IMG/VR virus record: IMGVR_UViG_3300028173_000008
Length of the DNA: 64,000 bases
From: an uncultured virus (IMG/VR IMGVR_UViG_3300028173_000008)
Lineage: Duplodnaviria; Heunggongvirae; Uroviricota; Caudoviricetes
Strand: one strand, 5' to 3'
Made by a program: the position numbers and the translations under genes
The notes under the pieces: model-generated
The model's database searches: none
What the model was told of the DNA's origin: nothing
What the model saw: only the letters and a program-made list of their open reading frames with translations
In this document: positions 2,411 through 42,598 of the stretch, piece by piece
Numbering within the stretch: position 1 is the first letter of the stretch
Layout of the letters: every line of letters starts with the position of its first letter

Positions 2411-2821
2411 ATGAACAAGAGCCCTAAAACTATCGGCGAGCGCAGTGAAGGCATGGTGCTGGCAGCCCTCTTGAGGGCGGGCAAGGTTGTGTTGCAACCC
2501 TTCGGGGACAACCAACGGTACGACCTTGTGGTGGATGAGGATGGGAAATTCATCCGGGTCCAGTGCAAGACCGCCCGCTTGAAGAACGGCGCTTTGGCCT
2601 TCGATACATGCTCCTCTCAAACCCATCGGGGGAAGGGGAAGCAAGATTACAGGGGGCAAGCGGACTTGTTTGGGGTCTATTCTCCTGACAGGGACGCCGT
2701 GTACCTTGTACCCGTTGAGGATGTCGGGGTTACCCAAGCCCGACTCAGGCTGTCCAAACCTCGTAATGGCCAATCCAAAGGCGTCCGCTTTGCGGCGGAT
2801 TATCTTCTCGATCTGGGGTAG
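2411..2821 (+). CDS. PD-(D/E)XK endonuclease (I-Ssp6803I/PDDEXK_5-like)
   Basis: GERSE..V...L..PFGDNQRYDLVVD..RVQCKT..Y..ADLFGVY. Confidence 0.85.
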   Translation: MNKSPKTIGERSEGMVLAALLRAGKVVLQPFGDNQRYDLVVDEDGKFIRVQCKTARLKNGALAFDTCSSQTHRGKGKQDYRGQADLFGVYSPDRDAVYLVPVEDVGVTQARLRLSKPRNGQSKGVRFAADYLLDLG

Positions 2822-2884
2822 CTCAATAGGTAGAGCGCCGGTCTGTTAAATCGGTTGTTGAGGGTTCAAGTCCCTCCCCCAGAG
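2812..2884 (+). tRNA. tRNA-Asn(GTT), cassette cargo
   Basis: cloverleaf; ORF stop TAG = positions 8-10. Confidence 0.9.
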
Positions 2885-2931
2885 CTACAAGCTCCTCATG
2901 TTGTGGGTTCGAGTCCCACCGCCGGAGCTTG

Positions 2932-3431
2932 AAGGGCTGGCTGTTCCCTTTCGGGGGTTCAGTCTGTGACGGGCCGTATGGGGTCCGTAGGAAACATCGG
3001 AGCAATCCGGTGGAAGGGGAGTCCTTGTCACAGGCCCCCGCCAGTCACCTCTCGGGGTGGTTGGTCCGTCCATGCAAGCCGTAGGTAGCCCGGTCAGGGC
3101 GGGTCGTCCACCAAAGGCGGCTCTAGTCCCGAGTCTGGGGTTGGCCCCACCGACAGGTGGGTGAAGCATGGCCTGTCAGCGATGGCAGTCATGCGAAGGA
3201 TAGGCGGGGACGCCTTGAGCCAACCAATCCAACTGGACGAAGGAGGATTCCCAAGCGGCAGTCGGTCAGTTTGAGGGGTGGGAGCCCTGAAGGCGGTCGG
3301 CATGTAGAGGGGCGAAGGGTGAAATCCCCGGAGTCCTGAAGACAGGGTAAAGCCCGCCGGGGCGAATACCAGAGGACGTGTTGCATTCCCCTCCTCAAAA
3401 GGGAAGGGAACGACTGGCAGGGCACGCCCTT
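2932..3431 (+). ncRNA. large (~500 nt) structured non-coding RNA
   Basis: no credible ORF; AAGGGC/GCCCTT ends pair; UUCG/GNRA-type hairpins; flanked by tRNAs. Confidence 0.55.
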
Positions 3432-3437
3432 ATGACA

Positions 3438-3510
3438 TGCGAATTAGCTCAGTTGGTAGAGCGCATCCTTCGTAGGGATGAGGTCGTTGGTTCAAGTCCA
3501 ACCCTTGCAA
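3438..3510 (+). tRNA. tRNA-Thr(CGT), imperfect acceptor stem
   Basis: good D, anticodon and T arms; 2 acceptor mismatches. Confidence 0.6.
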
Positions 3511-3845
3511 ACAAAGGAAAGACCCTGCCGGTCTGTGTGGTAAGTGACCTAATCCCGTCCCCGCAAGGGAAGGCGGGCCGGTGAAGCCCCCAAGGTGGAG
3601 CCGGTTGGTGGGAAGCTGAAGCGTAGGGGCGGCCACCCCTGCCGGATGTGGAAAGCCGATGCAGCACAGGCGACGAGGGAAACGCCACCCTCCAACAAAG
3701 GCGGTCACGACTGGCTACCGGGGAGACCCGGTGGACACGGGGAGAACTTGGCGGGGGACCGTCAAGGTAATGCCCTGAGAGGCCGGTTATGAAAACGGGT
3801 AGTCTCACCGTTCCTCATTCTCCCCTCCCTTCGGGGCGGGGACTA
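3511..3845 (+). ncRNA. ~330 nt structured non-coding RNA
   Basis: CCCC-GCAA-GGGG, CCGGG-gaga-CCCGG, CCC-TTCG-GGG hairpins; between tRNAs. Confidence 0.45.
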
Positions 3846-3846
3846 T

Positions 3847-3923
3847 CGGAGAGTAGCGCAGCCTGGTAGCGCACCTGGTTCGGGACCAGGGGGTCGGGGG
3901 TTCGAATCCCCCCTCTCCGACCA
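3847..3923 (+). tRNA. tRNA-Pro(CGG)
   Basis: cloverleaf, CCA. Confidence 0.92.
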
Positions 3924-3955
3924 CGACAGAGACAGCCCGGAGAGACGGGCACCAT

Positions 3956-4029
3956 CGGGATGTGGCGCAGTCTGGCAGCGCACTTGGCTGGGGGCCAAGG
4001 GGCCGTCGGTTCGAATCCGACCATCCCGA
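3956..4029 (+). tRNA. tRNA-Pro(GGG)
   Basis: cloverleaf. Confidence 0.9.
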
Positions 4030-4037
4030 CTTTCAAT

Positions 4038-4108
4038 CCTGACCTAGCTCAATGGCAGAGCGCTCGGCTGTGGACCGGGAGATTCGGGTTCAACTCCCGG
4101 GGTTAGGA
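4038..4108 (+). tRNA. tRNA with GTG anticodon (atypical His, U-1:A73)
   Basis: cloverleaf CCTGACC/GGTTAGG. Confidence 0.7.
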
Positions 4109-4190
4109 CGGACAAGGGCTATGGGGTAGAGGCCGAAGTTGGACGAGGCACATTAGACTGGCTATACTCTCCTCATTAGTAGGAGGTAGC

Positions 4191-4811
4191 ATGTACAAGG
4201 AAGCCACGAAGCAAGAGGCCCTCCGCCTTCGCCAACAGCAGCGCCTTTCCCTTCGAGAGATCCAAGCCCAAACAGGGGTCTCTAAAGGAACCCTCTCCAA
4301 GTGGTTGCAGGGGATGCCGTTAGACAGGGAAGAGGTGCGGGCAAAACTCCGCCTCAATGGAACCAGCAAGGGACGAGCAAAAGCTGACCGGGTTGAATCT
4401 GCCTTACACCGCCGTTTCGGTGTTCCCATGAACAGCCACTACAAGGCTAAGATTGCAGAAGCAGCGATCCTTCTTCGGGCTGGCTTGTTGGGGGTGGATA
4501 CCTACCAGAGCCCCTTTGATGGAGACAAGGCCGACTGGGTGTTTGATGTGAAGGGACGCCTCCTTAAGGTGCAGGTGAAATGGGCGGCCACACCAGCCAA
4601 ACATGGGGCACCACAAGTGAAAGTACGATGTGCCGGGGGCCGTTCTGGACTCCGGTGCTACACGGAGGGGGAATTCGACATTCTTGTAGGATATGACCTT
4701 TACACCGACACTGCCTATGTGTGGACGTGGGATGAGGTGAAGGATTTCACCAGCACTGTTTCCTGTTGGGATGAAGCAGAGGAACGCTGGGACAAGATCA
4801 CGGTCTCATAG
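4191..4811 (+). CDS. HTH + PD-(D/E)XK endonuclease
   Basis: LSLREIQAQTGVSKGTLSKWL HTH; IAEAA..PFDGDKADW..KVQVK..Y.EGEFD. Confidence 0.85.
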   Translation: MYKEATKQEALRLRQQQRLSLREIQAQTGVSKGTLSKWLQGMPLDREEVRAKLRLNGTSKGRAKADRVESALHRRFGVPMNSHYKAKIAEAAILLRAGLLGVDTYQSPFDGDKADWVFDVKGRLLKVQVKWAATPAKHGAPQVKVRCAGGRSGLRCYTEGEFDILVGYDLYTDTAYVWTWDEVKDFTSTVSCWDEAEERWDKITVS

Positions 4812-4879
4812 GGGAGTCAGGAGTCCCCACCTGCCTGTCACGCAGGAGATCCCGGGTTCAAATCCCGGTGGGACCGCCA
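4802..4879 (+). tRNA. tRNA-Asp(GTC), cassette cargo
   Basis: cloverleaf, CCA; ORF stop TAG = positions 8-10. Confidence 0.9.
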
Positions 4880-5050
4880 GAGGAAGCGGGTTCGAGTCCC
4901 GTCTATCCCGCCAATCGCCGGGGGTGAAACCCGGAGGAACACAGTGGAAGCAGCAGGCTCCCCCTCGGGGGAGGCCGTGCAAGCGTAACTCCTGCCGTGG
5001 AAGCTGTGGAAAACCGGGCGAATCCCCACTTGGGACCTTGTGGACACGCA

Positions 5051-5138
5051 GGCTGGGTAGCTCCAATCGGCAGAGCGCTGGGCAACGCTTGCACGGCTTT
5101 GGGCCCAGAGGTAGGGGGTTCGAGTCCTTCCCTGGGTA
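5051..5138 (+). pseudogene. tRNA-like RNA with ~19-21 nt anticodon loop
   Basis: D and T arms intact, CTGGGC/GCCCAG stem, weak acceptor. Confidence 0.55.
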
Positions 5139-5179
5139 CACAAGAAGCGGGATGTCCAAGTTCCAACGGCGATTTTCAT

Positions 5180-5252
5180 GGGGGTGAGGTCTGCTGGGCG
5201 GACGCTGGCTTGTCAGGTCAGAACGGGGAGGGTTCGATTCCCTTCACTCCCG
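5180..5252 (+). tRNA. tRNA-Asp(GTC)
   Basis: cloverleaf. Confidence 0.75.
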
Positions 5253-5256
5253 CTTT

Positions 5257-5329
5257 GGGTCCGTAGTGTTAATGTAGCATCCCTGGCTCTTAACCAGGCG
5301 GGTGGCGGGTTCAAGTCCCCCCGGACTCA
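5257..5329 (+). tRNA. tRNA-Lys(CTT)
   Basis: cloverleaf, atypical D loop. Confidence 0.7.
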
Positions 5330-5344
5330 CTGAAGTGTTTTCAT

Positions 5345-5417
5345 CCCTCCGTGGCGCAATTGGTAGCGCAAACGGCTCTTAACCGTGAGGTTGAAGGTTC
5401 GATTCCTTCCGGGGGGA
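5345..5417 (+). tRNA. tRNA-Lys(CTT)
   Basis: cloverleaf. Confidence 0.88.
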
Positions 5418-5435
5418 CTAGCGTTTGTACTTTGT

Positions 5436-5512
5436 GACCCCGTCGTCTAGTTGGCTAGGACACCAGACTCTCAATCTGGAGATCGCCGGTTCAAACCCGG
5501 TCGGGGTTACCA
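5436..5512 (+). tRNA. tRNA-Glu(CTC)
   Basis: cloverleaf, CCA. Confidence 0.9.
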
Positions 5513-5513
5513 T

Positions 5514-5587
5514 CCTCCCGTAGCTCAGTAGGTAGAGCGGCGGCCCGATAAGCCGTGACAGCGAAGGTTCAATTCCTTTCGGGAGGA
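5514..5587 (+). tRNA. tRNA-Ile(GAT)
   Basis: cloverleaf (C33). Confidence 0.85.
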
Positions 5588-5614
5588 CTAGCAGAGGACT
5601 GTGGTGCTGGTTCA

Positions 5615-5687
5615 GCATAGATAGCTCAATTGGTTGAGCATCGGTCATTCAAACCGACGGTTACAGGTTCGATCCCTGTTCGTTTGC
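5615..5687 (+). pseudogene. degenerate tRNA (TTC loop)
   Basis: D, anticodon and T arms present; acceptor poorly paired; A33. Confidence 0.5.
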
Positions 5688-5721
5688 AACAGCCCGACAC
5701 CCGACCTTCCTCTGCTTCCCT

Positions 5722-5841
5722 CGAACAGTAGCTCAGTGTTGATGTACCCCCGCCAAGTTGCCGGTTGATGAAGCGGAAGGGCATCGATAGGGAGAGCGCC
5801 GGGACACTCGGAGGCCGCTGGTTCAAACCCAGCCTGTTCGA
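5722..5841 (+). ncRNA. tRNA-like RNA with ~53-nt D-loop hairpin insert and no anticodon loop
   Basis: CGAACAG/CTGTTCG acceptor, GCTC/GAGC D stem, CCGGG-ACA-CTCGG, GCTGG-TTCAAAC-CCAGC. Confidence 0.75.
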
Positions 5842-5845
5842 CTTT

Positions 5846-5917
5846 GCGGGCGTAGCTCAGTGGTAGAGCATCGGGTTGCCAATCCGAAGGTCGTGGGTTC
5901 GAATCCCATCGCCCGCT
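5846..5917 (+). tRNA. tRNA-Gly(GCC)
   Basis: cloverleaf. Confidence 0.92.
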
Positions 5918-5921
5918 CTAT

Positions 5922-5995
5922 GGTGTGGTCTTCTAATTGGCTAGGAAATCGGCCTTTCAAGCCGGGGAATGCGGGTTCGAATCCCGTCCACACTA
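5922..5995 (+). tRNA. tRNA-Glu(TTC)
   Basis: cloverleaf. Confidence 0.9.
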
Positions 5996-6168
5996 CAAGA
6001 AGTCCGGTAGCCACCGGACGCGGCCGGAGACACCCCCGGTCGTCAGTCAGGTTGGCATCTGACGAACAGGGTAGCCGATCCCCGGTAATGGGGCGTCGTC
6101 AGGGAGGCGAAAGTAGGGCAACCGAAGGACGGTCTGAAATACATCGTCCGGGTCTTACCCCTGATCAT

Positions 6169-6244
6169 GGGGCCTTAGCTCACTTGGGAGAGCGTCGGGA
6201 TGGCATTCCGAAGGTAGCGGGTTCGATCCCCGCAGGCTCCACCA
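6169..6244 (+). tRNA. tRNA-Ala(GGC)
   Basis: cloverleaf, G3:U70, CCA. Confidence 0.92.
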
Positions 6245-6273
6245 GGGCTTAGTTGCAGATCTATCTGCGTTGA

Positions 6274-6347
6274 TGGGGCGTCGTCCAAAGGCAGGACCCT
6301 GGGTTTTGGTCCCAGTGATGAGGGTTCGAATCCTTCCGCCTCAGCCA
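6274..6347 (+). tRNA. tRNA-Gln(TTG)
   Basis: cloverleaf, CCA. Confidence 0.9.
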
Positions 6348-6361
6348 TTCAAGGAGGTGTC

Positions 6362-7162
6362 ATGAGCAAGATAGTAAAAGGCACCTCCCGGAGCGGTGTA
6401 GGAACTACGTTGGTGGTTCCGCAGCACCGGCTGGTGTTCGACATGGGGGCTCCCCTGGTGGAGTCCTTGGGCGTCCGTAAGGTGTTCATCACCCACGGGC
6501 ACATGGATCACGCAGGGGCTCTGGTGTTCCACGCCAGCACACGGGGAATGATGGGAATGGGGCCGCCCCTGTTCCACGTCCCGGCCTGGATGGAAGCCGA
6601 CCTTCGGGTGATACTGAAGGCCGCCGCCCGCCTCAACGGTGGGGGAGTCCAGTTCGACATGGTCCCCATGGAAGCGGGCAAGAGTCACGATCTGGGAGGG
6701 CCTCGCAGAGTGGTGCCCTTCTACACCGACCACCGGCTACCGTGCCTCGGCTACAAGGTCTACCAGACCCGAAACAAGCTCCGGGATGAGTTCATAGGAC
6801 TTCCCGGAGAGGAGATCGGGCGGCTTCGGAAGGGTGGAACGGAAGTCACCCGTGAGGTAGAAGCCTTGGCACACACGCACGTAGGGGACAGCCGGGTGAC
6901 CGTGCTGGACAAACACCCCGAGGTGTTCCAGTCAGATGTGCTGGTGCTGGAGTGTACGTTCGTGGGCGACTACTCCTTGGAGGAGACCCACAGGCGGGGA
7001 CACACGCACCTGTCCGAACTGGCGGAACGTGCGGAACTGTTCAAGGACGTGAAGGCCGTTGTCCTGACACACTTCTCGATGCGACACAGCGAGAAGGAGG
7101 TCAAGGCGGAGGTCGCCAAGCTCCCCGAGTCCCTTCGGGACAAGATCCACCTCGTTTTCTAG
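6362..7162 (+). CDS. rnz: ribonuclease Z (MBL fold)
   Basis: FITHGHMDH, GDS, LECTF, RGHTH, LTHFSMRH, short exosite. Confidence 0.85.
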   Translation: MSKIVKGTSRSGVGTTLVVPQHRLVFDMGAPLVESLGVRKVFITHGHMDHAGALVFHASTRGMMGMGPPLFHVPAWMEADLRVILKAAARLNGGGVQFDMVPMEAGKSHDLGGPRRVVPFYTDHRLPCLGYKVYQTRNKLRDEFIGLPGEEIGRLRKGGTEVTREVEALAHTHVGDSRVTVLDKHPEVFQSDVLVLECTFVGDYSLEETHRRGHTHLSELAERAELFKDVKAVVLTHFSMRHSEKEVKAEVAKLPESLRDKIHLVF

Positions 7163-7246
7163 CCCCCTCTCGGGGGCATCATTGGGGCATAGCTCAATTG
7201 GTAGAGTACCGTTGAACTTTGTGCGCTTTACCCTTACACTAGAAGC

Positions 7247-7828
7247 ATGGGACGAAAGAGCCACATCTGGGACACACCCCCGGAACGCTTCCGCCAACTG
7301 GTACACACCCACACCACATGGAAAGGGCTCGCATTAGCCCTTGGGATGTCGATCTGTGGGGGGACATTCAAGACCATCCGTAAAAGGATCCAGCAAGATG
7401 GGTTGGACGATCATCATTTGCGAGAGGGGGCCTCAAAACGAGGTGGCCTTTTGGCCGCTAAGAAACAGGAGCAGCCCCTTTCAGAGATCATGGTGAAAGA
7501 TTCTTCCTACTCACGGTACCACCTAAAGGCCCGTCTACTGCGAGACAGGGTGTTGGAAAACAAGTGTGCCATGTGCGGTCTCGATCCTGTTTGGGAAGGA
7601 GATCCCCTCGTGATGGTTCTTGACCACATAAACGGGGAACCCCAAGACCACCGGGCAGGGAATCTGAGGTTGGTCTGCCCCAACTGCAACTCACAGCTTC
7701 CAACCTTTGCAGGTCGGAAAACGAAAAAGGGCGAGGTTCTTTGTGTGGACTGCGGGACACCCATCCACACAAGAAGTACCAGATGTCGTTCATGTAGCGG
7801 CAGGCATCGTTATTTTACTGGGGAGTAA
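7247..7828 (+). CDS. HNH endonuclease
   Basis: CAMCG..LDHING..D.R..NLRLVCPNCNSQ. Confidence 0.9.
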   Translation: MGRKSHIWDTPPERFRQLVHTHTTWKGLALALGMSICGGTFKTIRKRIQQDGLDDHHLREGASKRGGLLAAKKQEQPLSEIMVKDSSYSRYHLKARLLRDRVLENKCAMCGLDPVWEGDPLVMVLDHINGEPQDHRAGNLRLVCPNCNSQLPTFAGRKTKKGEVLCVDCGTPIHTRSTRCRSCSGRHRYFTGE

Positions 7829-7891
7829 CTCAACTGGCAGAGTGCCGTCCTCTGAAGGCGGATGTTGTGGGTTCGAGTCCCACCTCCCCAG
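7819..7891 (+). tRNA. tRNA-Gln(CTG), cassette cargo
   Basis: cloverleaf; ORF stop TAA = positions 8-10. Confidence 0.9.
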
Positions 7892-7962
7892 CCCATAGGT
7901 TGAAGGTTCAAGTCCTTCTGCCCCAGCTATGGCGGGACGCACAGGCAGTGCAGGCCGTCTAA

Positions 7963-8035
7963 CGCAGTGTAGCTCAACAGGTAGAGCGCTGGTCTCATAA
8001 GCCGGAGGTTCCCGGTTCAATTCCGGGCACTGCGA
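7963..8035 (+). tRNA. tRNA-Met(CAT)
   Basis: cloverleaf. Confidence 0.85.
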
Positions 8036-8050
8036 CTACAGCGGTACTAG

Positions 8051-8124
8051 GGCGACGTAGCCAAGTTGGTTAAAGCACTGGTCTGCAAAACCAGAGATCC
8101 CCGGTTCGAATCCGGGCGTCGCCT
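8051..8124 (+). tRNA. tRNA-Cys(GCA)
   Basis: cloverleaf, U73. Confidence 0.9.
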
Positions 8125-8197
8125 CTTTTCGGACGGTAGCTCAGTGGTAGAGCTTCGGTAGCTCTCCTATCAGGAGTCTCATGGTAGGAGGTGGGCT

Positions 8198-8545
8198 GTG
8201 ACAACCATCGTGAAATGTGAGCAGTGCGGCAGGGAGTACGTCCCGGACAGGAAAAAGGGACACCGTGGAACCCTTTGCAACTCTTGTGTGGTCAACACCA
8301 GGAGAGCAAGCGTAAAGGAAAAGGCAGTCTCCTACAAAGGAGGGGCGTGCGCCATCTGCGGTTACGACCGGTGTGCGAGAGCCTTGGGGTTCCACCATAA
8401 GGACCCTGCCAAGAAGGATTTTCCTCTTGGGGCCAACTACACGAGGTCGTGGGACAAACTGAAGGTGGAGTTGGATAAGTGCATCCTCCTCTGCGCCAAC
8501 TGTCACGCTGAAGTTCATGATGGGATGGTTGAACTCGGGGGGTAG
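8198..8545 (+). CDS. HNH endonuclease
   Basis: YKGGACAICGY..ALGFHHKDP..ELDKCILLCANCHAEVH. Confidence 0.9.
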   Translation: MTTIVKCEQCGREYVPDRKKGHRGTLCNSCVVNTRRASVKEKAVSYKGGACAICGYDRCARALGFHHKDPAKKDFPLGANYTRSWDKLKVELDKCILLCANCHAEVHDGMVELGG

Positions 8546-8608
8546 CTCAGTGGCTAGAGCGAACGGCTGATAACCGTTAGGGCGAGGGTTCGAGTCCCTC
8601 TCTCCCGA
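8536..8608 (+). tRNA. tRNA-Ile(GAT), cassette cargo
   Basis: cloverleaf; ORF stop TAG = positions 8-10. Confidence 0.9.
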
Positions 8609-8752
8609 CTTTTACTACCGTGGGGCCGGAGGTTCGAATCCTCCTCGTCCGACCAGTAGGGAAAGGTGGCGGTCTGAGAGCCTGCCGGGTTCTGCAAGGC
8701 CCAATGGTTCAACGTCTGTTGCAGCAGGCCCCGTGCGCCGCCCTGCGTTCAT

Positions 8753-8822
8753 GCCCTCGCCCGTGGATCGGGGCTTTGGTCTTCTAAACCGGAGGTCGAG
8801 GGTTCGATTCCTTCCGGGGGCG
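8753..8822 (+). tRNA. tRNA-Arg(TCT), shortened D arm
   Basis: acceptor, anticodon and T arms canonical. Confidence 0.7.
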
Positions 8823-8881
8823 CTAGTTTGTCTATGGGCAGGGGATGGTAGAGTGGATCGACTCCACGAGGAGATACCGTC

Positions 8882-10054: not shown

Positions 10055-10057
10055 CCT

Positions 10058-10130
10058 GCCCCAGTAGCTCAGTGGATAGAGCATCGGTCTCCTAAACCGA
10101 GGGCCGCAGGTTCGATTCCTGCTTGGGGCA
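10058..10130 (+). tRNA. tRNA-Arg(CCT)
   Basis: cloverleaf. Confidence 0.92.
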
Positions 10131-10164
10131 CTCCCTTCAACAGCACCGCAACAAGGAGAACACC

Positions 10165-10218
10165 ATGGTACTTCGTCTCAAACAGCCGCCGACCCCCATT
10201 CGTTTACTGGGCCGGTAG
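10165..10218 (+). CDS. 17-aa mini-ORF MVLRLKQPPTPIRLLGR ending inside tRNA-Lys
   Basis: AAGGAG RBS; TAG = tRNA positions 8-10. Confidence 0.45.
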   Translation: MVLRLKQPPTPIRLLGR

Positions 10219-10284
10219 CTCAACTGGATAGTCAGCAAGCGGCTTTTAACCGCTAGGTTCCGGGTTCAAGTCCCGGTCGGCCCA
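10209..10284 (+). tRNA. tRNA-Lys(TTT)
   Basis: cloverleaf. Confidence 0.88.
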
Positions 10285-10289
10285 CTATT

Positions 10290-10363
10290 GCGGACGTAGC
10301 CAAGAGGTAAGGCATCGGGCTTCCACCCCGTGAGCGCCGGTTCGATTCCGGTCGTCCGCTCCA
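10290..10363 (+). tRNA. tRNA-Gly(TCC)
   Basis: cloverleaf, CCA. Confidence 0.9.
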
Positions 10364-10404
10364 CCAACAGGGCTTAGGTAGTTCCTCTATTGCGTAGACA
10401 CCCA

Positions 10405-10772
10405 TGGGTAGGATGTCAGCCTCGGTGAAGCTGGGTACGCAGTGGAGGGGCACAAAACGACGCCTGCACCGCCCGTGAGATAGGCCCAAACGGGGAACCG
10501 TCAACCGGGGAGGGGGTGGAAGTCCTCTTGACCCGCCCGGAAGGGTCCTGCGTTGAGCCGTCATCTTGAGGGCGGCCTTGAAGGGCAGCGTAGGTACACC
10601 CCCTGAAGGACGCCCTTTGGCTGGTGCTTGGACTGGCCCCTGTGGATGAGGGTTTGTATCAACCAAGCTGGAAGCGGAGTACTCGTCCCCATTGTTGAAT
10701 CCCACCTTCGGGTGCGGTACTGGACGAGCCGGAAGTACCCCATGGCACGGCGTACTTCCGGCTGTGGGCGTG
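10405..10772 (+). ncRNA. ~370 nt structured non-coding RNA
   Basis: directly after a GGCTTAG promoter; 12-bp AGCCGGAAGTAC/GTACTTCCGGCT helix; no credible ORF. Confidence 0.5.
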
Positions 10773-10773
10773 A

Positions 10774-10845
10774 GGGCGTATAACTCAGCGGAAGAGTGCC
10801 GTCTTGACAAGGCGGAAGTCCCTGGTTCAATCCCAGGTACGCCCA
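10774..10845 (+). tRNA. tRNA-Val(GAC)
   Basis: cloverleaf. Confidence 0.9.
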
Positions 10846-10862
10846 CTGAATCGGAGGGCTAG

Positions 10863-11048
10863 GTGACGAACAAGGACAAGTGGTTCGCAACCTGTATGGT
10901 GTTGATGCTTGTGACAGGCTTCGGTCTTGTGGGGCTTGGCCTCGACTCAACGCTGGCATCGATCTTTGAGGTGGCCGCAGCCGCCATCTGGCTCTTTGGA
11001 GTTCCGAAAGTCAGCCGTAGAGCACACCAGTACATCTACGGCAGGTAG
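10863..11048 (+). CDS. small membrane protein
   Basis: GGAGG RBS, two hydrophobic segments. Confidence 0.6.
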   Translation: MTNKDKWFATCMVLMLVTGFGLVGLGLDSTLASIFEVAAAAIWLFGVPKVSRRAHQYIYGR

Positions 11049-11534: not shown

Positions 11535-11981
11535 ATGAGCGTTACATTTTGGTGCCCCGAAGCTCCCCGAGAGGCCATCGAGACCCCTTGCTGGGGCGAG
11601 TGCGACGAAACCTGCCCCATGTGTCACGGCACCAACGTGACCACGGAACAGGTCAGCCCGCACGAGATGAACCTCGCCAACGCCAACGCCTACAACATCC
11701 TCCTCGCCTTGGGTGTCCAGAGTGACGAATCCATGTGCGGCGGGTGGGAGACCCCCGAGGACATCCGCACCATCAGGGCGGCGATCCTCAAGGCCCGCAA
11801 CGTGACAGGCCGCAGGGAAGGGGCACACCGAGACGCCGAATCCTACGGCGGGCCGGGAACTGGAACCTGCCGGGTCGTTTCGCAGGGCTACACCGACGAG
11901 CAGGTACTCGACCGGCTGACCCGGTTGGACAAGCTCCTCGCCTACGCTTTGGAGAACAGTCACCGGGTGGTTTGGGGATGA
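11535..11981 (+). CDS. hypothetical protein (Zn ribbon)
   Basis: GGAGG RBS, CxxC motifs. Confidence 0.7.
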   Translation: MSVTFWCPEAPREAIETPCWGECDETCPMCHGTNVTTEQVSPHEMNLANANAYNILLALGVQSDESMCGGWETPEDIRTIRAAILKARNVTGRREGAHRDAESYGGPGTGTCRVVSQGYTDEQVLDRLTRLDKLLAYALENSHRVVWG

Positions 11982-12556
11982 GTGCTCACCGTGAGCGTGT
12001 GAAAATGCTCAAGCGGGTCAACGCCCACCAGCAAGTCAACGACCCCTTCTGGTTGTCCGGCTACACCGACGGAAGCCACCATCCCGACACAGGGAAGGGC
12101 GGCGTGGGCCTGTGGGTACGGGACAACGAGACCCGAATCCTCAAGGCTATACCGACCCCTCCGTGGGCTGTGAACTCCAACCTCGTGGAACTGTTCGGGG
12201 TCTGCGCCGCCATTGAGACGGCCCTGACGGAACTCACACAGGAAGCCAACATCCTCGTCATCAAGACGGACAGCCAGAGCACGGCCAACTGGTTCGGCTG
12301 GCAGGGCAACAAGTCCGTACCGAAGCAGCCTGAAGCCCTCGAGATGATGCAGCACGTCCTAGAGCTTGCCACCGACCGCCGAGTGAAGGTGGTCGTCAAG
12401 TGGGTGAAGGGACACCAAGGCACGGGCAGCGTCGTGGGCTACTTGAACAACCGGGTCGACAAGATGGCCCGTGATGCACGACTGAAAGGTGTACCCTCTC
12501 GCTGGTCCTGCCGGGTCAACGAGGAACGCAAGCAAGGGCCTGTAGCTCAACGGTAG
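11978..12556 (+). CDS. rnhA: ribonuclease HI
   Basis: YTDGS, NSNLVEL, KTDSQ, KWVKGH, NNRVDKMA. Confidence 0.85.
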   Translation: MSAHRERVKMLKRVNAHQQVNDPFWLSGYTDGSHHPDTGKGGVGLWVRDNETRILKAIPTPPWAVNSNLVELFGVCAAIETALTELTQEANILVIKTDSQSTANWFGWQGNKSVPKQPEALEMMQHVLELATDRRVKVVVKWVKGHQGTGSVVGYLNNRVDKMARDARLKGVPSRWSCRVNEERKQGPVAQR

Positions 12557-12658: not shown

Positions 12659-12898
12659 ATGCCGGATCTACCCTACGTGATGCTCACTGGACTCATCCTC
12701 ATGCTGGTCGGTGTTCCCCTCTGGATGTACCGCTCAGAGAAGAAGAAGGTGGAGGCCGGGTGTTGCGGGAAGCCGTGGATCTCCTACTGCCGTGACTCAC
12801 AGGGCGGCATCGGCTTGAACTGTCAGGAGTGCGACAACGGCACTTGGGTATCCTACTACCGCAAGGGCTTCGTTGAGGGCGAACAGCAACCATTCTAG
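12659..12898 (+). CDS. small membrane-anchored protein
   Basis: GGAGG RBS, N-terminal TM. Confidence 0.6.
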   Translation: MPDLPYVMLTGLILMLVGVPLWMYRSEKKKVEAGCCGKPWISYCRDSQGGIGLNCQECDNGTWVSYYRKGFVEGEQQPF

Positions 12899-14043: not shown

Positions 14044-14103
14044 CTTGTGCGCCCGTAGCTTTATGGTTTCTCCTCCGGTATTATCCGGGCAACAGGAGGA
14101 ACC

Positions 14104-14616
14104 ATGCCAACCTGCAAGAAATGTGGTGTCTCATTCCCCAACAGGATAACGGTTGAGGGGGGCAGGCGAAACATCTCCAGACGGAAATTCTGCCTGACAT
14201 GTTCCCCTTGGGGGTCTCGAAACCGAAAAGACCTGAGTGCCCCCTCGATTACCAGCGGAGTGAAAACCTGCCCTCGGTGTGGGGACGTGAAGGAACTCAC
14301 TGAGTTCTACACCAGACGGAGAGGTAAGGAGTCCGAGCCTTCCTCCTACTGTAAGGCATGCGCCGCAGAGGAAGCACGGGGACGTATGCGGGCATTGAAA
14401 GCCCGTTGCGTTGAGTACAAGGGAGGCGGGTGCCGGGTTTGTGGGTACTCGAAAAGCCTCGCTGCGTTGGATTTCCATCACAGGGATCCCAAGGAGAAAG
14501 GTTACGGGATTTCGCAGATCCGAGGTTGGAAATTCGAACGGGTAAAGGAAGAATTAGATAAATGTGACCTTCTGTGTCGGAATTGCCACTCAGAGGTTCA
14601 TGACGAGGCCCTGTAA
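14104..14616 (+). CDS. HNH endonuclease
   Basis: YKGGGCRVCGY..ALDFHHRDP..ELDKCDLLCRNCHSEVH. Confidence 0.9.
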   Translation: MPTCKKCGVSFPNRITVEGGRRNISRRKFCLTCSPWGSRNRKDLSAPSITSGVKTCPRCGDVKELTEFYTRRRGKESEPSSYCKACAAEEARGRMRALKARCVEYKGGGCRVCGYSKSLAALDFHHRDPKEKGYGISQIRGWKFERVKEELDKCDLLCRNCHSEVHDEAL

Positions 14617-14679
14617 CCCAGTGGATAGGGTGCCTGACTTCGAATCAGGTTGTCGCAGGTTCGAGTCCTGCCAGGGCCA
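14607..14679 (+). tRNA. tRNA-Arg(TCG), cassette cargo
   Basis: cloverleaf; ORF stop TAA = positions 8-10. Confidence 0.9.
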
Positions 14680-14716
14680 TCAGGTTGGGAGTTCGAATCT
14701 CCCCGGGCGTTCTTTT

Positions 14717-34000: not shown

Positions 34001-34034
34001 GGCTTAGCCCTTCTTCCAGACGGGTTGGGTATGT

Positions 34035-37298: not shown

Positions 37299-37664
37299 TG
37301 GTGGAGGTGCGGGGAATCGAACCCCGGTCCTAAGATGCCTACGCCAACGCACTACGCTCATTTCCCGTGTTTATCCCGCACGGGCAAGGTGCTTCGATCC
37401 TCAACGCACATGCTGCTGTTAGTCATCGCCTTCAGGTAGCCGCCTGCCCGCTATCCTGAACGCCAACCCGTTTCTGCTGTAACCTCACGCCCCGAATCGG
37501 GTGCTCTGACGTGAGAATGAAGCACCAGCACAGTCTTTCGACTACGCTGCCGCCTGCATCGGAAGGGTCTCGTTGGCAATTAAGCCTTTGCCGTCTGTAA
37601 CGCCCGACAGCACTCGGAACGAACGTTTAGCCTCGTACACCCCAGTCGAAACCAGTACACCCCC
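37299..37664 (-). ncRNA. ssrA: tmRNA, tag ANETLPMQAAA*
   Basis: GGGGGTGTACTGGTTTCGAC 5' end; GGTTCGATTCCCCGCACCTCCACCA 3' end; tag at 37577-37542. Confidence 0.95.
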
Positions 37665-39373: not shown

Positions 39374-39697
39374 ATGTCCAAGTTCACCGTCGACTGTTTC
39401 ACCGAGAAGTCACTCCCGGAGCCGGGGTTCCCTGAGAACACCTACGAGGCGGCCACCGTGCTGGAGGCTGCGGCTGTTGTCCATAACTGCACCCGCAAGC
39501 AGGCCGGGATCAGGATGGTTCAGATCTGGATCGAAGAGCCGGACGACCGAGAGGCCGTCGACACGCTCAAGACGTGCCGGTGTGGGACGAAGGGATGCGA
39601 TACAAAGCGCATTGACCCTGACGAGGTAGCGAAGGCGCTGGGGGCGGAGAAGGCCGTGAAGCCGAAGAACCTGCCCCGCAGGCCGGGGACACGGTAG
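39374..39697 (+). CDS. hypothetical protein
   Basis: GGAGG RBS. Confidence 0.6.
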   Translation: MSKFTVDCFTEKSLPEPGFPENTYEAATVLEAAAVVHNCTRKQAGIRMVQIWIEEPDDREAVDTLKTCRCGTKGCDTKRIDPDEVAKALGAEKAVKPKNLPRRPGTR

Positions 39698-39784
39698 GCG
39701 GAAGCGGAGGGAGTCGAACCCTCAAGGCCGTAAAGCTCGCCTGTTTTCAAGACAGGTGCCGTCGCCACGTCGGCTGGCGCTTCC
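39697..39784 (-). tRNA. tRNA-Ser(TGA)
   Basis: cloverleaf, long variable arm. Confidence 0.9.
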
Positions 39785-39806
39785 AAGTTGAACAGTAGGT
39801 CTTCGT

Positions 39807-39897
39807 TGGCGGAAGGAGGGGGAGTCGAACCCCCAAGGCGCTCATCACGCTCGACCACTTTCCAAGCGGCTGCCATCACCAATTGGCTTGCCCTTCC
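39807..39897 (-). tRNA. tRNA-Ser(GGA)
   Basis: cloverleaf, CCA. Confidence 0.9.
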
Positions 39898-39901
39898 AAA
39901 G

Positions 39902-39988
39902 TGCGACCGGAGGGATTCGAACCCTCACGCCAGTCATTGTTGACACTGGCCCCTCAAGCCAGCGCGTCTACCATTCCGCCACGGTCGC
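39902..39988 (-). tRNA. tRNA-Leu(GAG)
   Basis: cloverleaf. Confidence 0.9.
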
Positions 39989-39993
39989 ATGAG

Positions 39994-40075
39994 TGCTGCC
40001 GGTGGGACTCGAACCCACACACCTCAAGGGCACGGGCCTCTCAGACCCGCATGTCTACCATTCCATCACGACAGC
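39994..40075 (-). tRNA. tRNA-Leu(GAG)
   Basis: cloverleaf. Confidence 0.88.
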
Positions 40076-40078
40076 ATA

Positions 40079-40200
40079 GAAAGCACCCCAGCACGTAGGG
40101 AACCACGGGTTGGTTACCGCTGGCCGCCCACTCCTCCCAGAAGTGCTGCTTCTCTGTGGTCTTGGACACCCCTGATCTACAGCCCCGGCTGGGGTGCCTT
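40079..40200 (-). ncRNA. unassigned ~120 nt hairpin RNA
   Basis: GGCACCCCAGC/GCTGGGGTGCT closing stem. Confidence 0.45.
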
Positions 40201-40290
40201 TGGCGGAAGGACGGGGAGTCGAACCCCGAAGGCCGGTTAAGGCTCGCTGGTTTTCGAAACCAGTGCAGTCGCCCATCTGCTTGCCCTTCC
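40201..40290 (-). tRNA. tRNA-Ser(CGA)
   Basis: cloverleaf, CCA. Confidence 0.9.
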
Positions 40291-40291
40291 A

Positions 40292-40367
40292 TGGAGCGCT
40301 CGCCCGGACTTGAACCGGGGACCACCGGCTTCGGAGGCCGGGACTCTATCCACTGAGCTACGAGCGC
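40292..40367 (-). tRNA. tRNA-Arg(CCG)
   Basis: cloverleaf, CCA. Confidence 0.92.
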
Positions 40368-40370
40368 AAA

Positions 40371-40523
40371 GGTGGGGGAGGTAGGAATCGAACCTACAAT
40401 GCCCTCTCGGGCGGTCTGCTTTACAGGCAGATGTCTATACCTTGCTGAAGTCGCAACAGAGTTCCCGACCGGGGTCAGGATAAGGTCGTCACAACGAGTA
40501 GCGTGACTTTTGACCACTCCCCC
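40371..40523 (-). tRNA. tRNA-Tyr(GTA) with ~68-nt structured D-loop insertion
   Basis: GGGGGAG/CTCCCCC acceptor, TCTGC-CTGTAAA-GCAGA, variable arm, T arm; insert 40442-40509. Confidence 0.8.
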
Positions 40524-40527
40524 ATAG

Positions 40528-40600
40528 AGCCAACGACGGGAATCGAACCCGTAACCCCTTGCTTACCATGCAAGTGCTCTACCGTTGGAGCTACGTTGGC
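40528..40600 (-). tRNA. tRNA-Thr(GGT)
   Basis: cloverleaf. Confidence 0.92.
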
Positions 40601-40618
40601 ATGCTTGAATCAGACAAG

Positions 40619-40690
40619 AGCCCAGTACCGGAGTCGAACCGATGTCAGCGGGTTACAAATCCGCTGCTCTGCCACTTGAGCTAACTGGGC
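40619..40690 (-). tRNA. tRNA-Thr(TGT)
   Basis: cloverleaf. Confidence 0.88.
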
Positions 40691-40723
40691 AAATCAGGTG
40701 CTCTACCGTTGAGCCACGCTAGC
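40691..40723 (-). pseudogene. orphan 5' half of a Thr-type tRNA
   Basis: GCTAGCG-TG-GCTCAACGGTAGAGC-A-CCTGA-TTT fused directly to tRNA-Thr(TGT). Confidence 0.75.
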
Positions 40724-40727
40724 AAAG

Positions 40728-40799
40728 AGCCGAAGGTCGGAATCGAACCGACAACCTGCCGCTTACGAAACGGCTGCTCTACCATTGAGCTACATCGGC
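40728..40799 (-). tRNA. tRNA-Thr(CGT)
   Basis: cloverleaf. Confidence 0.9.
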
Positions 40800-40854
40800 A
40801 AAGTGCGACCGGGGGGAGTCGAACCCCCACGCCTCAAAGGCACCGGATTCTAAG

Positions 40855-40934
40855 TGGCTGAGGTGGGAGTCGAACCCACACGCCCTAAGCGCCCGCCTCT
40901 AAAACGGGTGCGTCTACCGTTCCGCCACTCAGCC
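40855..40934 (-). tRNA. tRNA-Leu(TAG), cassette cargo
   Basis: cloverleaf; ORF stop TGA inside acceptor strand. Confidence 0.88.
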
Positions 40935-41429
40935 TTTTTCTTGTTTGGTCACGGAGGTCAACCCTTTGCTATTACACCACCCAGGTTGTTGGGAGTGGCA
41001 GTTAGGGCACAGGAATCGTAAGTTTTCAGGGCGGTTGTCTAACCAGTCTCGGTTGATGTGGTCCACCTGTAGCATGAGGGGTTTCCCGACCCACACTCCC
41101 TCGATCCCACAAGATTCGCACGCATAGGGCCGCCCACTGTCAAGGAGAGCCCTCCGTAAGCGGTACGCTGCGGTACGCCTCCCTGTGTCCTTCTTTGACA
41201 GGGTAGTTAGCCACGGAGTCTTTCCCGGGCCTCCCTTATGGGCTGTTCCCTTGTTGGATCCTTGACCGTGGAAATGGACTGTGTCGAGTCCGTATTCCCG
41301 TACCTTACGGGTGATGTGCGTTTGTGTCCCGCCCGCCTGTTTCACCCCCAAATCTCGAAGCACGCCCGCCATGGAAGTGTTCTGTTGAACAAGTGGGGCT
41401 AGGATCTCTTTTGTGTAACGTCGTCCCAT
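40929..41429 (-). CDS. HNH endonuclease
   Basis: CESCG..LQVDHINRDWLDNRPENLRFLCPNCHSQ. Confidence 0.9.
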   Translation of the reverse strand: MGRRYTKEILAPLVQQNTSMAGVLRDLGVKQAGGTQTHITRKVREYGLDTVHFHGQGSNKGTAHKGGPGKTPWLTTLSKKDTGRRTAAYRLRRALLDSGRPYACESCGIEGVWVGKPLMLQVDHINRDWLDNRPENLRFLCPNCHSQQPGWCNSKGLTSVTKQEKG

Positions 41430-41496
41430 ACACAGCTTACGGTATAGGCTAGCAACCGGAACCGGCGTGTCTACCGTTTCACCACGGTCGCAAAGG

Positions 41497-42341
41497 ATGA
41501 CCACCCGTAGCCGGGATCCTGTTTTATGGACACATTCATCTAGTGGCCCCTACCCGTCCGCATAGCGCTGCTCACCCGCTCTTGGCCCAACCCCGATGCC
41601 GAGAGCGTTGCCCTGAAAAGAGCTTCTGCATTCCTTGGCGTGTAAGGCCGTGACGTTGGCAGAACAGATTGAGGGACGGGGTCACTTCGTGTTCAGCCCC
41701 GTCAGGAGAACGGACTTTGGGGTAGGGCTGCTTCTTCTTAGTGCGGCTGATCGCCGCCTTTTCCGCTTCCGTTGGGGAAGCCTTCCGACCACCCGATCCC
41801 ACAGCGTTCTTATTGCCCCGCTGCAAAAGTGACAGGGCTTGCTTCGTTTCTTCTGTATGCTTGTAACCCAGGCTGTTGCCTGCTTCTGGGAGGATGTTGT
41901 ACTTCTTGGCTTTCGGGGTCTTGTCCAACCACTCCTGTTCCTTCTCCAAGAGCTTGTCGTGGGCCGCCTGAACAAGCACAAAGAAGCAAATGTCCTCTTC
42001 ACCCCTCTTGGCAAAGGCTCGTTGTAAGGGGGTGTTATGGTGGGTGCCTTTTCGAAGAAGCCTCCCATGTGCTGAGAACCTCTTGTAGAGATCCACTGCG
42101 GACCCGATGTAGAGCTTCCCCGAAGCCCTACTTCTGATGGCATAGACACCGCTCTTACCGTGTAGCGCAGAATAAGGGGTACCTTTCATGGAAGGGTCCA
42201 ATTTCATAGGCCAAAGATACCACGTTCCTGTTTGGGTTGCACCCTCGGAAGTGCGAACGGCCTACGGCCTCCTTCCTTCAGCAGTGGTGTCCCGAGCTTC
42301 CTCACATCCCTTGCGGGGTAGTGCGTGCCCTCAGTGGTCAT
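41497..42341 (-). ncRNA. rnpB: RNase P RNA (reduced), interrupted by GIY-YIG ORF
   Basis: P1 ATGACCAC/GTGGTCAT; P2 GGGCAC/GTGTCC; P4 GAGGA-AGC(U)CGGGA / ACAGGA-TCCCGGCT with bulged U; CGGGTAGG L15-like; CTAGATGAATG. Confidence 0.8.
41572..42207 (-). CDS. GIY-YIG homing endonuclease with NUMOD3-like motif
   Basis: SGVYAI..YIGSA..KRF..H, EKEQ.WLD, YN, HTEETK. Confidence 0.9.
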   Translation of the reverse strand: MKLDPSMKGTPYSALHGKSGVYAIRSRASGKLYIGSAVDLYKRFSAHGRLLRKGTHHNTPLQRAFAKRGEEDICFFVLVQAAHDKLLEKEQEWLDKTPKAKKYNILPEAGNSLGYKHTEETKQALSLLQRGNKNAVGSGGRKASPTEAEKAAISRTKKKQPYPKVRSPDGAEHEVTPSLNLFCQRHGLTRQGMQKLFSGQRSRHRGWAKSG

Positions 42342-42425
42342 GGTGCCAGAGGGGGGACTCGAACCCCCACGCCTCAAGGACAGACGGTTTTGAACCGACC
42401 GCGTCTACCATTCCGCCACTCTGGC
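42341..42425 (-). tRNA. tRNA-Leu(CAA)
   Basis: cloverleaf, CCA. Confidence 0.88.
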
Positions 42426-42433
42426 AAGTAAGT

Positions 42434-42522
42434 TGGTGGAGGAGGTGGGATTCGAACCCACTCACCGCAACGCGGACCAGATTTACAGTCTGGCGTGACT
42501 CTCCAACTTCAACCGCTCCTCC
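42434..42522 (-). tRNA. tRNA-Tyr(GTA)
   Basis: cloverleaf, CCA. Confidence 0.85.
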
Positions 42523-42526
42523 AAAG

Positions 42527-42598
42527 TGGAAAGGGGTGGAATCGAACCACCGACACGGGGATTTTCAGTCCCCTGCTCTACCTCTGAGCTACCCCTCC
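42527..42598 (-). tRNA. tRNA-Phe(GAA)
   Basis: cloverleaf. Confidence 0.9.

Follow-up and report, generated by a model that had tools for sequence, protein, structure and literature searches.

Six nuclease genes lie within the transfer RNA (tRNA) arrays of the DNA stretch analysed here, 64,000 nucleotides from an uncultured virus of the Caudoviricetes (IMG/VR record IMGVR_UViG_3300028173_000008), which is called the window throughout. Each of them shares its strand with the next tRNA gene, which it abuts without a spacer, the stop codon of the nuclease gene falling inside the tRNA. Each nuclease gene, together with that tRNA gene, is an insert within an older tRNA gene of the same amino acid, as shown by flanking pieces of the older gene, which fit its isotype and, in the five testable cases, pair with each other at seven of seven acceptor positions. 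The six overlaps are best explained as compact mobile cassettes, in which a homing-type nuclease and a replacement tRNA were inserted into a resident tRNA of matching isotype, so that where the stop codon falls is a by-product of packing; the probability of this reading is put at about 0.6.

Split older tRNAs around the nuclease genes

tRNAs were called using ARAGORN and Rfam, and stop codons were taken from the list of open reading frames (ORFs). ARAGORN finds 51 tRNAs in two arrays, at 2167-14793 on the plus strand and at 39697-44202 on the minus strand. The window was scanned for T arms belonging to no called tRNA, and matching 5′ tRNA pieces were sought upstream. Orphan T arms lie directly after all six nuclease-linked tRNAs (2903-2919, 4886-4902, 7902-7918, 8628-8644, 14687-14703 and 40812-40828), and after every one of them come seven bases of acceptor strand and the discriminator base. 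Within 70 bases downstream, six of six nuclease-linked tRNAs have such a T arm with its 3′ acceptor strand, as against one of the 45 others (Fisher p = 4e-7). Immediately upstream of five of the six nuclease ORFs stands a matching 5′ piece, made up of the acceptor strand, U8 and the D arm and, in most cases, also the 5′ anticodon-stem strand. The acceptor strands of the upstream and downstream pieces pair 7/7 in all five testable cases (with one G-T each for Ile and Arg), for which the chance is about 0.001 per case. The parts of the cassettes are as follows.

2345..2375, plus strand: 5′ half of the older tRNA-Asn (acceptor strand, D arm, 5′ anticodon-stem strand), pairing 7/7 with 2899-2928
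2393..2821, plus: PD-(D/E)XK nuclease ORF, 142 amino acids (PDDEXK_5, E 7e-37); stop TAG at positions 8-10 of tRNA-Asn
2812..2885, plus: carried tRNA-Asn(gtt) (ARAGORN; Rfam, 70.6 bits)
2899..2928, plus: 3′ half of the older tRNA-Asn (variable loop, T arm, 3′ acceptor strand, G73), from the orphan T-arm scan
4116-4139, plus: doubtful 5′ remnant of the older tRNA-Asp; no convincing 5′ half was found
4191..4811, plus: nuclease ORF with helix-turn-helix (HTH) and PD-(D/E)XK parts, 206 amino acids (PDDEXK_5); stop TAG at positions 8-10 of tRNA-Asp
4802..4879, plus: carried tRNA-Asp(gtc) (ARAGORN, Rfam)
4880..4913, plus: 3′ half of the older tRNA-Asp (T arm 4886-4902, acceptor strand, G73, CCA), from the orphan T-arm scan
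7183..7213, plus: 5′ half of the older tRNA-Gln, its acceptor pairing 7/7 with 7897-7927
7247..7828, plus: HNH nuclease ORF, 193 amino acids (phrog_10822); stop TAA at positions 8-10 of tRNA-Gln in Rfam numbering
7819..7895, plus: carried tRNA-Gln(ctg) (ARAGORN, Rfam)
7897..7927, plus: 3′ half of the older tRNA-Gln (positions 43-71 of the Rfam tRNA model, 5′-truncated, 17.5 bits, E 0.8)
8130..8159, plus: 5′ half of the older tRNA-Ile, from acceptor pairing
8198..8545, plus: HNH nuclease ORF, 115 amino acids (phrog_2255); stop TAG at positions 8-10 of tRNA-Ile
8536..8609, plus: carried tRNA-Ile(gat) (ARAGORN, Rfam)
8617..8656, plus: 3′ half of the older tRNA-Ile, from the 3′ anticodon-stem strand to CCA (positions 37-71 of the Rfam tRNA model, 5′-truncated, 18.5 bits, E 0.43)
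14049..14060, plus: 12-base 5′ stump of the older tRNA-Arg, pairing 7/7 (one G-T) with the strand that follows the orphan T arm
14104..14616, plus: HNH nuclease ORF, 170 amino acids (phrog_2255); stop TAA at positions 8-10 of tRNA-Arg
14607..14679, plus: carried tRNA-Arg(tcg) (ARAGORN, Rfam)
14680..14710, plus: 3′ half of the older tRNA-Arg, from the orphan T-arm scan
41461..41491, minus: 5′ half of the older tRNA-Leu, within the long version of the HNH ORF
40929..41429, minus: HNH nuclease ORF (phrog_10822), long version 40929-41504; stop TGA at positions 4-6 of tRNA-Leu(tag)
40854..40934, minus: carried tRNA-Leu(tag) (ARAGORN, Rfam)
40805..40853, minus: 3′ half of the older tRNA-Leu(tag) (anticodon loop, long variable arm, T arm, acceptor strand), from the orphan T-arm scan

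The original prediction had taken these reading frames for nucleases, and family searches bear this out for all six, which comprise two PD-(D/E)XK proteins (PDDEXK_5 matches with E 7e-37 and 1.5e-11) and four HNH proteins in two PHROG families (E 4e-40, 1e-28, 2e-51 and 7e-48). The real start of the Leu-linked HNH gene is probably the ATG at 41429, as the alignment to its paralogue suggests; the long ORF begins inside the older tRNA-Leu half.

The discriminators and anticodon remains of the older halves fit the isotype of the complete tRNA in between: the discriminator is G for Asn, Gln and Asp and A for Ile and Leu, and the older Leu piece keeps a CTTAGAA loop and the long variable arm. Over their entire length the complete, carried tRNAs differ from the older pieces; their scores on the Rfam tRNA model are 54-73 bits. 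The older tRNA breaks off near position 31 in four cases and, for Arg, at position 12, and it resumes at positions 32 to 44; in the older Asn and Gln halves the anticodon loop is deleted. When the halves were excised and searched with Rfam, two 3′ halves weakly matched the tRNA model (E 0.43 and 0.8) and no 5′ half matched. Further orphan T arms with tRNA-like context and no adjoining nuclease gene occur at 5114-5130 (plus), 5817-5833 (plus) and 40381-40397 (minus), in the regions of about 5050-5145, 5760-5845 and 40381-40460; decay of former tRNAs, or an anticodon loop that has become enlarged, may account for these.

The nuclease-tRNA partnership in other viruses

Regarding the nuclease of the Asn cassette, its PD-(D/E)XK homologues in IMG/VR (37-66% identity, on contigs of 38-67% G+C) have tRNA-Asn(gtt) directly downstream at nine of 16 loci, and two more loci have tRNA-Asn directly upstream; loci L013 and L014 are possibly one virus. 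The stops at the nine loci fall at tRNA position 8 (three loci), 9, 13, 37 (two loci), -7 and -2. Homologues of the HNH nuclease of the Leu cassette are followed by a tRNA within 60 bases at 21 of 26 loci, and this is tRNA-Leu(tag) at L068, L069 and L071/72, among the closest relatives. Their stops lie at position 8 or 9 at seven loci (four distinct), elsewhere in the tRNA at four, at -3 to -12 at seven and at -46 to -51 at three. The HTH-PD-(D/E)XK nuclease of the Asp cassette has two relatives, one of which has its stop at positions 8-10 of a tRNA-Gly(gcc), while another tRNA-Gly(gcc) lies upstream. No relatives of the Gln-linked HNH were found in IMG/VR, and a megablast of 2000-15000 against the phage collection returned tRNA-sized matches only. 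In cultured phages, the PDDEXK homologue of My1 stops at positions 5-7 of tRNA-Ile, and the phi-pp2 homologue extends about 37 bases into tRNA-Met.

The split-tRNA layout itself recurs in unrelated viral contigs. L011 (38% G+C) shows a half, a PDDEXK gene, tRNA-Asn and a half, with 7/7 acceptor pairing, and L016 (70% G+C) has a PDDEXK gene alone between two tRNA parts that pair 6/7; L001 keeps a 5′ half only.

A hand tally pooled about 38 nuclease-tRNA pairs, the window included, in which the stop falls at positions 8-10 in 14, elsewhere within the tRNA in 11, at most 12 bases upstream in 10 and further upstream in three. Among overlapping stops, positions 8-10 account for 14 of 25 in the pooled set (p = 0.016) and for nine of 19 outside the window (p = 0.15). 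From this comparison, the conserved feature is the partnership of nuclease and tRNA with no spacer, not the stop position. It had been suggested at the outset that the overlap ties the nuclease genetically to its tRNA; a tie does exist, in that the pairs are kept across deep divergence and each pair in the window is a single insert in an older tRNA gene. A separate idea, that the stops 6-9 bases before the tRNA in some relatives are relics of the TAG of an earlier tRNA, was rejected on inspection of the junctions.

Stop codons inside the tRNAs

All ten stop coordinates of the original prediction hold when compared with ARAGORN, Rfam and the ORF list. For the ORF ending at 7828, the TAA occupies positions 8-10 of tRNA-Gln with the Rfam start at 7819 and positions 9-11 with the ARAGORN start at 7818; the stops of the other five cassettes are given above. 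The remaining four stops belong to the following ORFs.

42589..43080, minus: QueF-like ORF; stop TAG at positions 8-10 of tRNA-Phe 42526-42598 (first base 42598)
11735..12556, plus: ribonuclease H ORF (rnhA); stop TAG at positions 19-21 of tRNA-Met 12536-12609
12659..12898, plus: ORF of 79 amino acids matching no family; stop at positions -1 to +2, spanning the first bases of tRNA-Val 12897-12969
10123..10218, plus: mini-ORF of 31 amino acids matching no family; ends at positions 8-10 of the tRNA-Lys starting at 10209

The QueF-like gene sits between two different tRNA-Phe(gaa) genes, 42526-42598 and, upstream, 43038-43112; the longest ORF begins within the upstream one, and the true start is therefore further down. 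No tRNA halves were found around queF, rnhA or the 79-residue ORF in the orphan T-arm and 5′-half scans.

A stop triplet (TAG, TAA or TGA) occupies positions 8-10 in 34 of the 51 tRNAs, so that every reading frame running through in that phase is closed there, as happens to several small ORFs without meaning; the mini-ORF is for the same reason probably no gene. Nine ORFs of at least 79 amino acids overlap a tRNA and six of these end at positions 8-10 (binomial p = 0.042 against one frame in three). The frequency of overlap is more striking than this excess: an upstream coding sequence (CDS) overlaps nine of the 51 tRNAs in the window, as compared with an upstream same-strand CDS at 250 of 115,660 t(m)RNA genes in the bacterial genomes surveyed in PMC4131195.

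A proposed mobile cassette and its rivals

In the preferred reading, a cassette consists of a free-standing nuclease gene (PD-(D/E)XK or HNH) and a tRNA gene with no spacer between them. The nuclease would cut the anticodon arm of the resident tRNA gene in a cassette-less genome, and repair would copy the cassette into the cut gene, that is, the nuclease would home into the older tRNA. The insertion would destroy both the resident tRNA gene and the cutting site, while the carried tRNA would replace the function that was lost. Without a spacer, the nuclease frame would enter the tRNA and end at the first in-frame stop, usually the conserved triplet U8-A9-G10 or U8-A9-A10, and the stop position would therefore be a by-product of maximal packing. 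Identical packing would account for the overlaps of queF, rnhA and the 79-residue ORF. Cleavage by ribonuclease P (RNase P) at +1 would part the overlapping messages from their stop and lower the output of nuclease, an effect that may be tolerated or mildly useful.

Several observations weigh against this reading. No relative with an uninterrupted older tRNA was found, and the other copies of the phage carry every cassette that their loci span; as no such empty site was seen, mobility is something that we infer only. Searches anchored on the neighbouring 390-residue gene and, in Joint Genome Institute metagenomes, on the gene with a metallo-β-lactamase (MBL) fold returned only identical copies of this phage or nothing, and the older tRNA-Gln half has no exact match in IMG/VR. 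The contigs of four runs over 2000-15000 contain no trustworthy cassette-less join, most joints having sides of 20-23 bases that arise from tRNA similarity to other organisms. At several junctions 7-13 bases of the older tRNA are gone and there is no clean target duplication, and the 5′ half of the Asp case is doubtful. Most homologous loci in other viruses lack flanking halves. Outside the window, only two tRNAs (in L003 and L011) combine an abutting ORF of at least 90 amino acids with an orphan T arm, a matching 5′ half being present only in L011, and an orphan T arm is found at none of the 26 loci with homologues of the Leu-linked HNH. The excess of stops at positions 8-10 among the nine overlapping ORFs fits selection for function as well as packing. 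A hairpin hiding the ribosome-binding site is significant in one nuclease of six, the Arg-linked HNH, whose ribosome-binding site and start codon lie inside a hairpin of -24.2 kcal/mol (z -4.2); the Asp- and Ile-linked nucleases show weaker predicted pairing between Shine-Dalgarno and anti-Shine-Dalgarno sequences that does not beat shuffles, and the other three show none. Although -35-like hexamers can be picked out by eye at the Asn, Gln and Asp insert junctions, a promoter scan at the insert starts found no excess (three found, 2.7 expected), and no promoters are claimed there.

The explanation offered in the original prediction is a dedicated switch: the stop lies in the tRNA so that RNase P generates a nonstop message, and tagging by transfer-messenger RNA (tmRNA) and degradation keep a toxic nuclease low. 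That maturation can generate nonstop messages is a known hypothesis, already in print. Transcript processing has been put forward as a means of lowering the expression of T4 segB and of F-TflI and F-TflII, endonucleases of T5 (PMC2330249), and for overlaps between a CDS and a t(m)RNA gene it has been argued that maturation should remove the stop of the upstream message and create a tmRNA substrate (PMC4131195, Hudson, Lau & Williams 2014). Two RNA genes of the window are relevant here.

37299..37664, minus: tmRNA gene, tag ANETLPMQAAA (ARAGORN; Rfam, 121.5 bits)
3371..3811, plus: GOLLD RNA with tRNA-Thr(cgt) embedded at 3438-3510 (Rfam, 154.4 bits; gathering score 150)

The tmRNA with this tag is real by both programs, as the original prediction had stated. 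An RNase P RNA encoded by the phage, which it had also assumed, was not recovered: there is no match in the window at E<=0.1, and the bacterial type A and type B models, which gave matches in control genomes, have no match at E<=10 in the whole viral record from which the window is drawn, a record that holds about 20% of the genome and so does not cover the whole phage. The large structured RNA of the array is GOLLD, and our guess is that it was mistaken for RNase P RNA.

A switch of this kind would be served by the layout, since nine ORFs of at least 79 amino acids have their stop beyond the RNase P site and the phage has a tmRNA. The cassette nucleases overlap their tRNA in six of six cases, compared with three of seven other genes preceding a tRNA (Fisher p 0.049), and the pooled proportion of overlapping stops at positions 8-10 (14/25, p 0.016) points the same way, as do the equivalent control proposed for segB and the T5 endonucleases (PMC2330249) and the reported toxicity of over-expressed SegB (PMC13096335). 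The lack of an RNase P RNA match in the record counts against the switch, although the host enzyme would serve. Outside the window, the proportion at positions 8-10 is nine of 19 (p 0.15); in about one third of the homologous pairs the stop precedes the tRNA by 2-12 bases and would stay on the message after RNase P cleavage; and the segB stop in the T4 RefSeq entry precedes its tRNA with 5 bases between. Because queF and rnhA, which are non-toxic, overlap tRNAs likewise and many homologous pairs stop before the tRNA, the comparative pattern argues against a dedicated switch, and the layout looks more like tight packing. We therefore regard the switch as unlikely.

Another explanation regards the halves as scars of rearrangement. 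In this case, resident endonucleases would break tRNA genes, and recombination among the tRNAs of the array would repair the breaks, as in the segmental amplification driven by SegB, leaving duplicated and truncated pieces. SegB cuts tRNA genes at a T-arm motif and drives amplification of the segment that holds segB and tRNAs (PMC2330249, PMC13096335). The array contains several duplicated isoacceptors as well as the orphan tRNA-like pieces at 5114-5130, 5817-5833 and 40381-40397, and some junctions share short strings, such as 6 bases at both ends of the Gln insert. Tandem duplication, however, gives no complete different tRNA nested between complementary halves of an older one; two matched deletions would be required in each of the six cases, and the carried tRNAs differ from the older halves throughout and not just at the junction. 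Scarring of this sort is accordingly an improbable origin of the cassettes.

A stronger form of the cassette reading would be a self-compensating selfish element. On entering its anticodon arm, the nuclease would destroy the resident tRNA gene and bring a cleavage-resistant spare of the same isotype, so that a nuclease lineage would be tied to its isotype; the shared stop would couple the two genes, and maturation of the spare would act as an off-switch through nonstop decay and the phage tmRNA. If it were true, such an element would drive the turnover of tRNA genes in giant-phage arrays, with nuclease and spare tRNA inseparable through the shared stop codon. We consider the complete scheme distinctly doubtful.

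The weakest explanation, a mere coincidence of frames in which ordinary neighbours lost their own stops and UAG at positions 8-10 was the first stop met, with no mobile element, can draw on the 34 of 51 tRNAs with a stop triplet there, on the meaningless small ORFs that end there and on the non-nuclease genes that overlap tRNAs too, but is already disfavoured by the flanking halves and the conserved nuclease-tRNA partnerships, leaves the overlap rate (9/51 against 250/115,660; PMC4131195) unexplained as well, and is very improbable.

Strain variation and the nearest relative

The nearest related contig (L004/L047) shares about 70% DNA identity with the window over the shared stretches. Its tRNAs are closer to the older halves than to the carried tRNAs for Gln(ctg) (32 v 20), Ile(gat) (27 v 22) and Asp (26 v 13), with a tie for Asn. 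Although the numbers are small, these scores would fit the older tRNA as the resident and the carried one as the immigrant.

The window (61.7% G+C) corresponds to G000:C1:30126-94125 of one viral record of 106,830 bases and differs from the G000 copy at 30 bases. IMG/VR classes the record as linear, with a CheckV completeness of about 20%; because the record is only that complete, the window is a piece of a very large phage. The metagenomes with this phage are from seawater or are otherwise marine. Near the Asp cassette, the window and G000 differ at 4879, 4887, 4901 and 4912. A contig present in two runs is identical to the window over 4173-4878 and then shows 40 listed differences from 4879 to 5048, with insertions or deletions at 4941 and 5064; this contig has 44 differences in total, and 13 differences across all runs lie outside those listed. 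Both variant patches (4879-4912, and 4879 to about 5064) thus begin at the last base of the carried tRNA-Asp, in one case only, and would look like a conversion tract starting at the edge of the element. As the changes 4887 C>T and 4901 G>A form a compensating pair in the orphan T stem, the variant flank is suggested to derive from a lineage still using that older tRNA. Elsewhere, other tight clusters of differences between the window and G000, at 1589-1656 (8), 6949-7039 (9) and 61945-61951 (2), stand in otherwise identical sequence and look like short recombination patches.

Comparison with known elements

The closest parallels come from the tRNA clusters of T5 and T4. In T5, hegC and hegD (annotated as HNH endonucleases) and T5.069 (with a T5orf172 domain) are, as in the window, nuclease ORFs within a tRNA cluster on the same strand, ending inside the next tRNA. 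According to RefSeq NC_005859, the overlap is 23 bases for hegD with tRNA-Gln2(CUG), 14 for hegC with tRNA-Ser2 and 24 for T5.069 with tRNA-Asn; unlike in the window, the stops are not at positions 8-10, and the nuclease families are partly different. The T5 record also lists a pseudo tRNA-Gln2 and "tRNA-like" RNAs beside these genes. At 33877-34524 of T5 (NC_005859, L094), T5.069 overlaps tRNA-Asn, and immediately after this tRNA comes "rna3, putative tRNA-like RNA", which could be a scar of the same kind as the orphan halves of the window.

In T4, the SegB endonuclease of the tRNA cluster cuts tRNA genes (PMC2330249). The segB gene is described as statistically associated with tRNAs with no isotype preference, and SegB as driving amplification of a segment consisting of segB plus tRNA (PMC13096335). 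SegB resembles the proposed cassette nucleases in that it cuts in tRNA genes, drives the inheritance of the tRNA region and abuts the next tRNA (PMC2330249, PMC13096335), the cuts by the cassette nucleases being a part of the homing model; a hairpin at its ribosome-binding site, together with the maturation of the tRNA, is believed to keep its expression low (PMC2330249, PMC13096335). In contrast to the nucleases of the window, it is a GIY-YIG enzyme with a relaxed specificity for the T arm of many tRNAs (PMC13096335), its stop precedes tRNA-Arg with 5 bases between (RefSeq), and it is not described as bringing a replacement tRNA into a split tRNA gene. The survey of bacterial overlaps follows the same nonstop logic but deals with bacterial chromosomes, where overlap is rare; phage tRNA arrays are not treated there and homing endonucleases are not mentioned (PMC4131195).

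Two further classes of mobile nuclease genes are instructive. In intronless homing, as of T4 SegF, and where a gene is split, as by Aeh1 MobE in nrdA, the nuclease gene and its flanks are reportedly copied into a nuclease-less allele, and the host gene can be split. Function is said to be kept there by co-converted resistant sequence or by both gene pieces working, whereas the cassettes of the window carry a whole spare gene. Group I introns with homing endonucleases occur in tRNA anticodon loops. They share with the cassettes the target, the anticodon arm of a tRNA, and a selfish nuclease in the insert; unlike these introns, the cassettes would restore function by a second gene and not by splicing.

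A group I intron as the nature of the inserts was considered and rejected: there is no ribozyme match (no Intron_gpI match in the window at E<=0.1), and the older Asn and Gln halves lack an anticodon loop. An integrase-borne island was rejected too, since the inserts consist of a nuclease ORF and a complete tRNA only and the older tRNA is not restored.

Full-text word searches of the literature found no account of a tRNA gene split by an insert made up of a nuclease and a replacement tRNA, which is not proof of absence. The cassette structure with its split older tRNAs is a new form of the biology of free-standing homing endonucleases, and is better supported than the mechanism of the original prediction. 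If the preferred reading is true, part of the building and renewal of tRNA arrays in giant phages would be the work of selfish nucleases, which write their own tRNA copies over the resident ones, and the duplicated isoacceptors, tRNA fragments and "tRNA-like" RNAs of such arrays would be explained. It would add a fourth way for a homing element to spare its host gene, besides intron splicing, protein splicing and co-conversion of resistant sequence. In annotation, ORFs that end in the tRNAs of phage arrays should be kept and not cut back as mistakes. While not new, the idea of nonstop mRNAs becomes testable on six parallel cases in one genome.

Other genes and RNAs of the arrays

A seventh homing-type nuclease of the arrays, a GIY-YIG endonuclease with NUMOD3, is encoded at 41572-42207 (minus), immediately upstream of the Leu cassette, and abuts no tRNA. 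The MBL-fold gene (Lactamase_B_2) lies within the tRNA array at 6362-7162 (plus), 20 bases upstream of the older tRNA-Gln half; in the related contig L047, a Lactamase_B_2 gene at 8415-9281 stops at positions 8-10 of tRNA-Ile(tat). The MBL-fold gene of the array may encode a tRNA-processing enzyme.

In an RNA-library run, a contig over 2953-3797, and with it part of the GOLLD gene, has a depth of 26, and other long exact-matching pieces have a depth of 2-3; these are contigs only, and carry-over of DNA is possible. A weak match to the bacterial small signal recognition particle RNA (33.6 bits, gathering score 40, E 0.003) lies at 11412-11499 (plus) and begins in the 3′ end of tRNA-Ala 11350-11423. 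Three tRNA-like genes were missed by ARAGORN, at 5615-5688 (plus), 43119-43191 (minus) and 43818-43902 (minus); one of them scores 46.9 bits on the Rfam tRNA model, and the other two score about 40 bits on the model for selenocysteine tRNA and are probably long-arm tRNAs. Finally, tRNA-Leu 43723-43807 (minus) has the anticodon CAA in the window and TAA in G000, with six changes in 12 bases (43762-43773) around the anticodon arm, and this difference is a strain-level anticodon switch.

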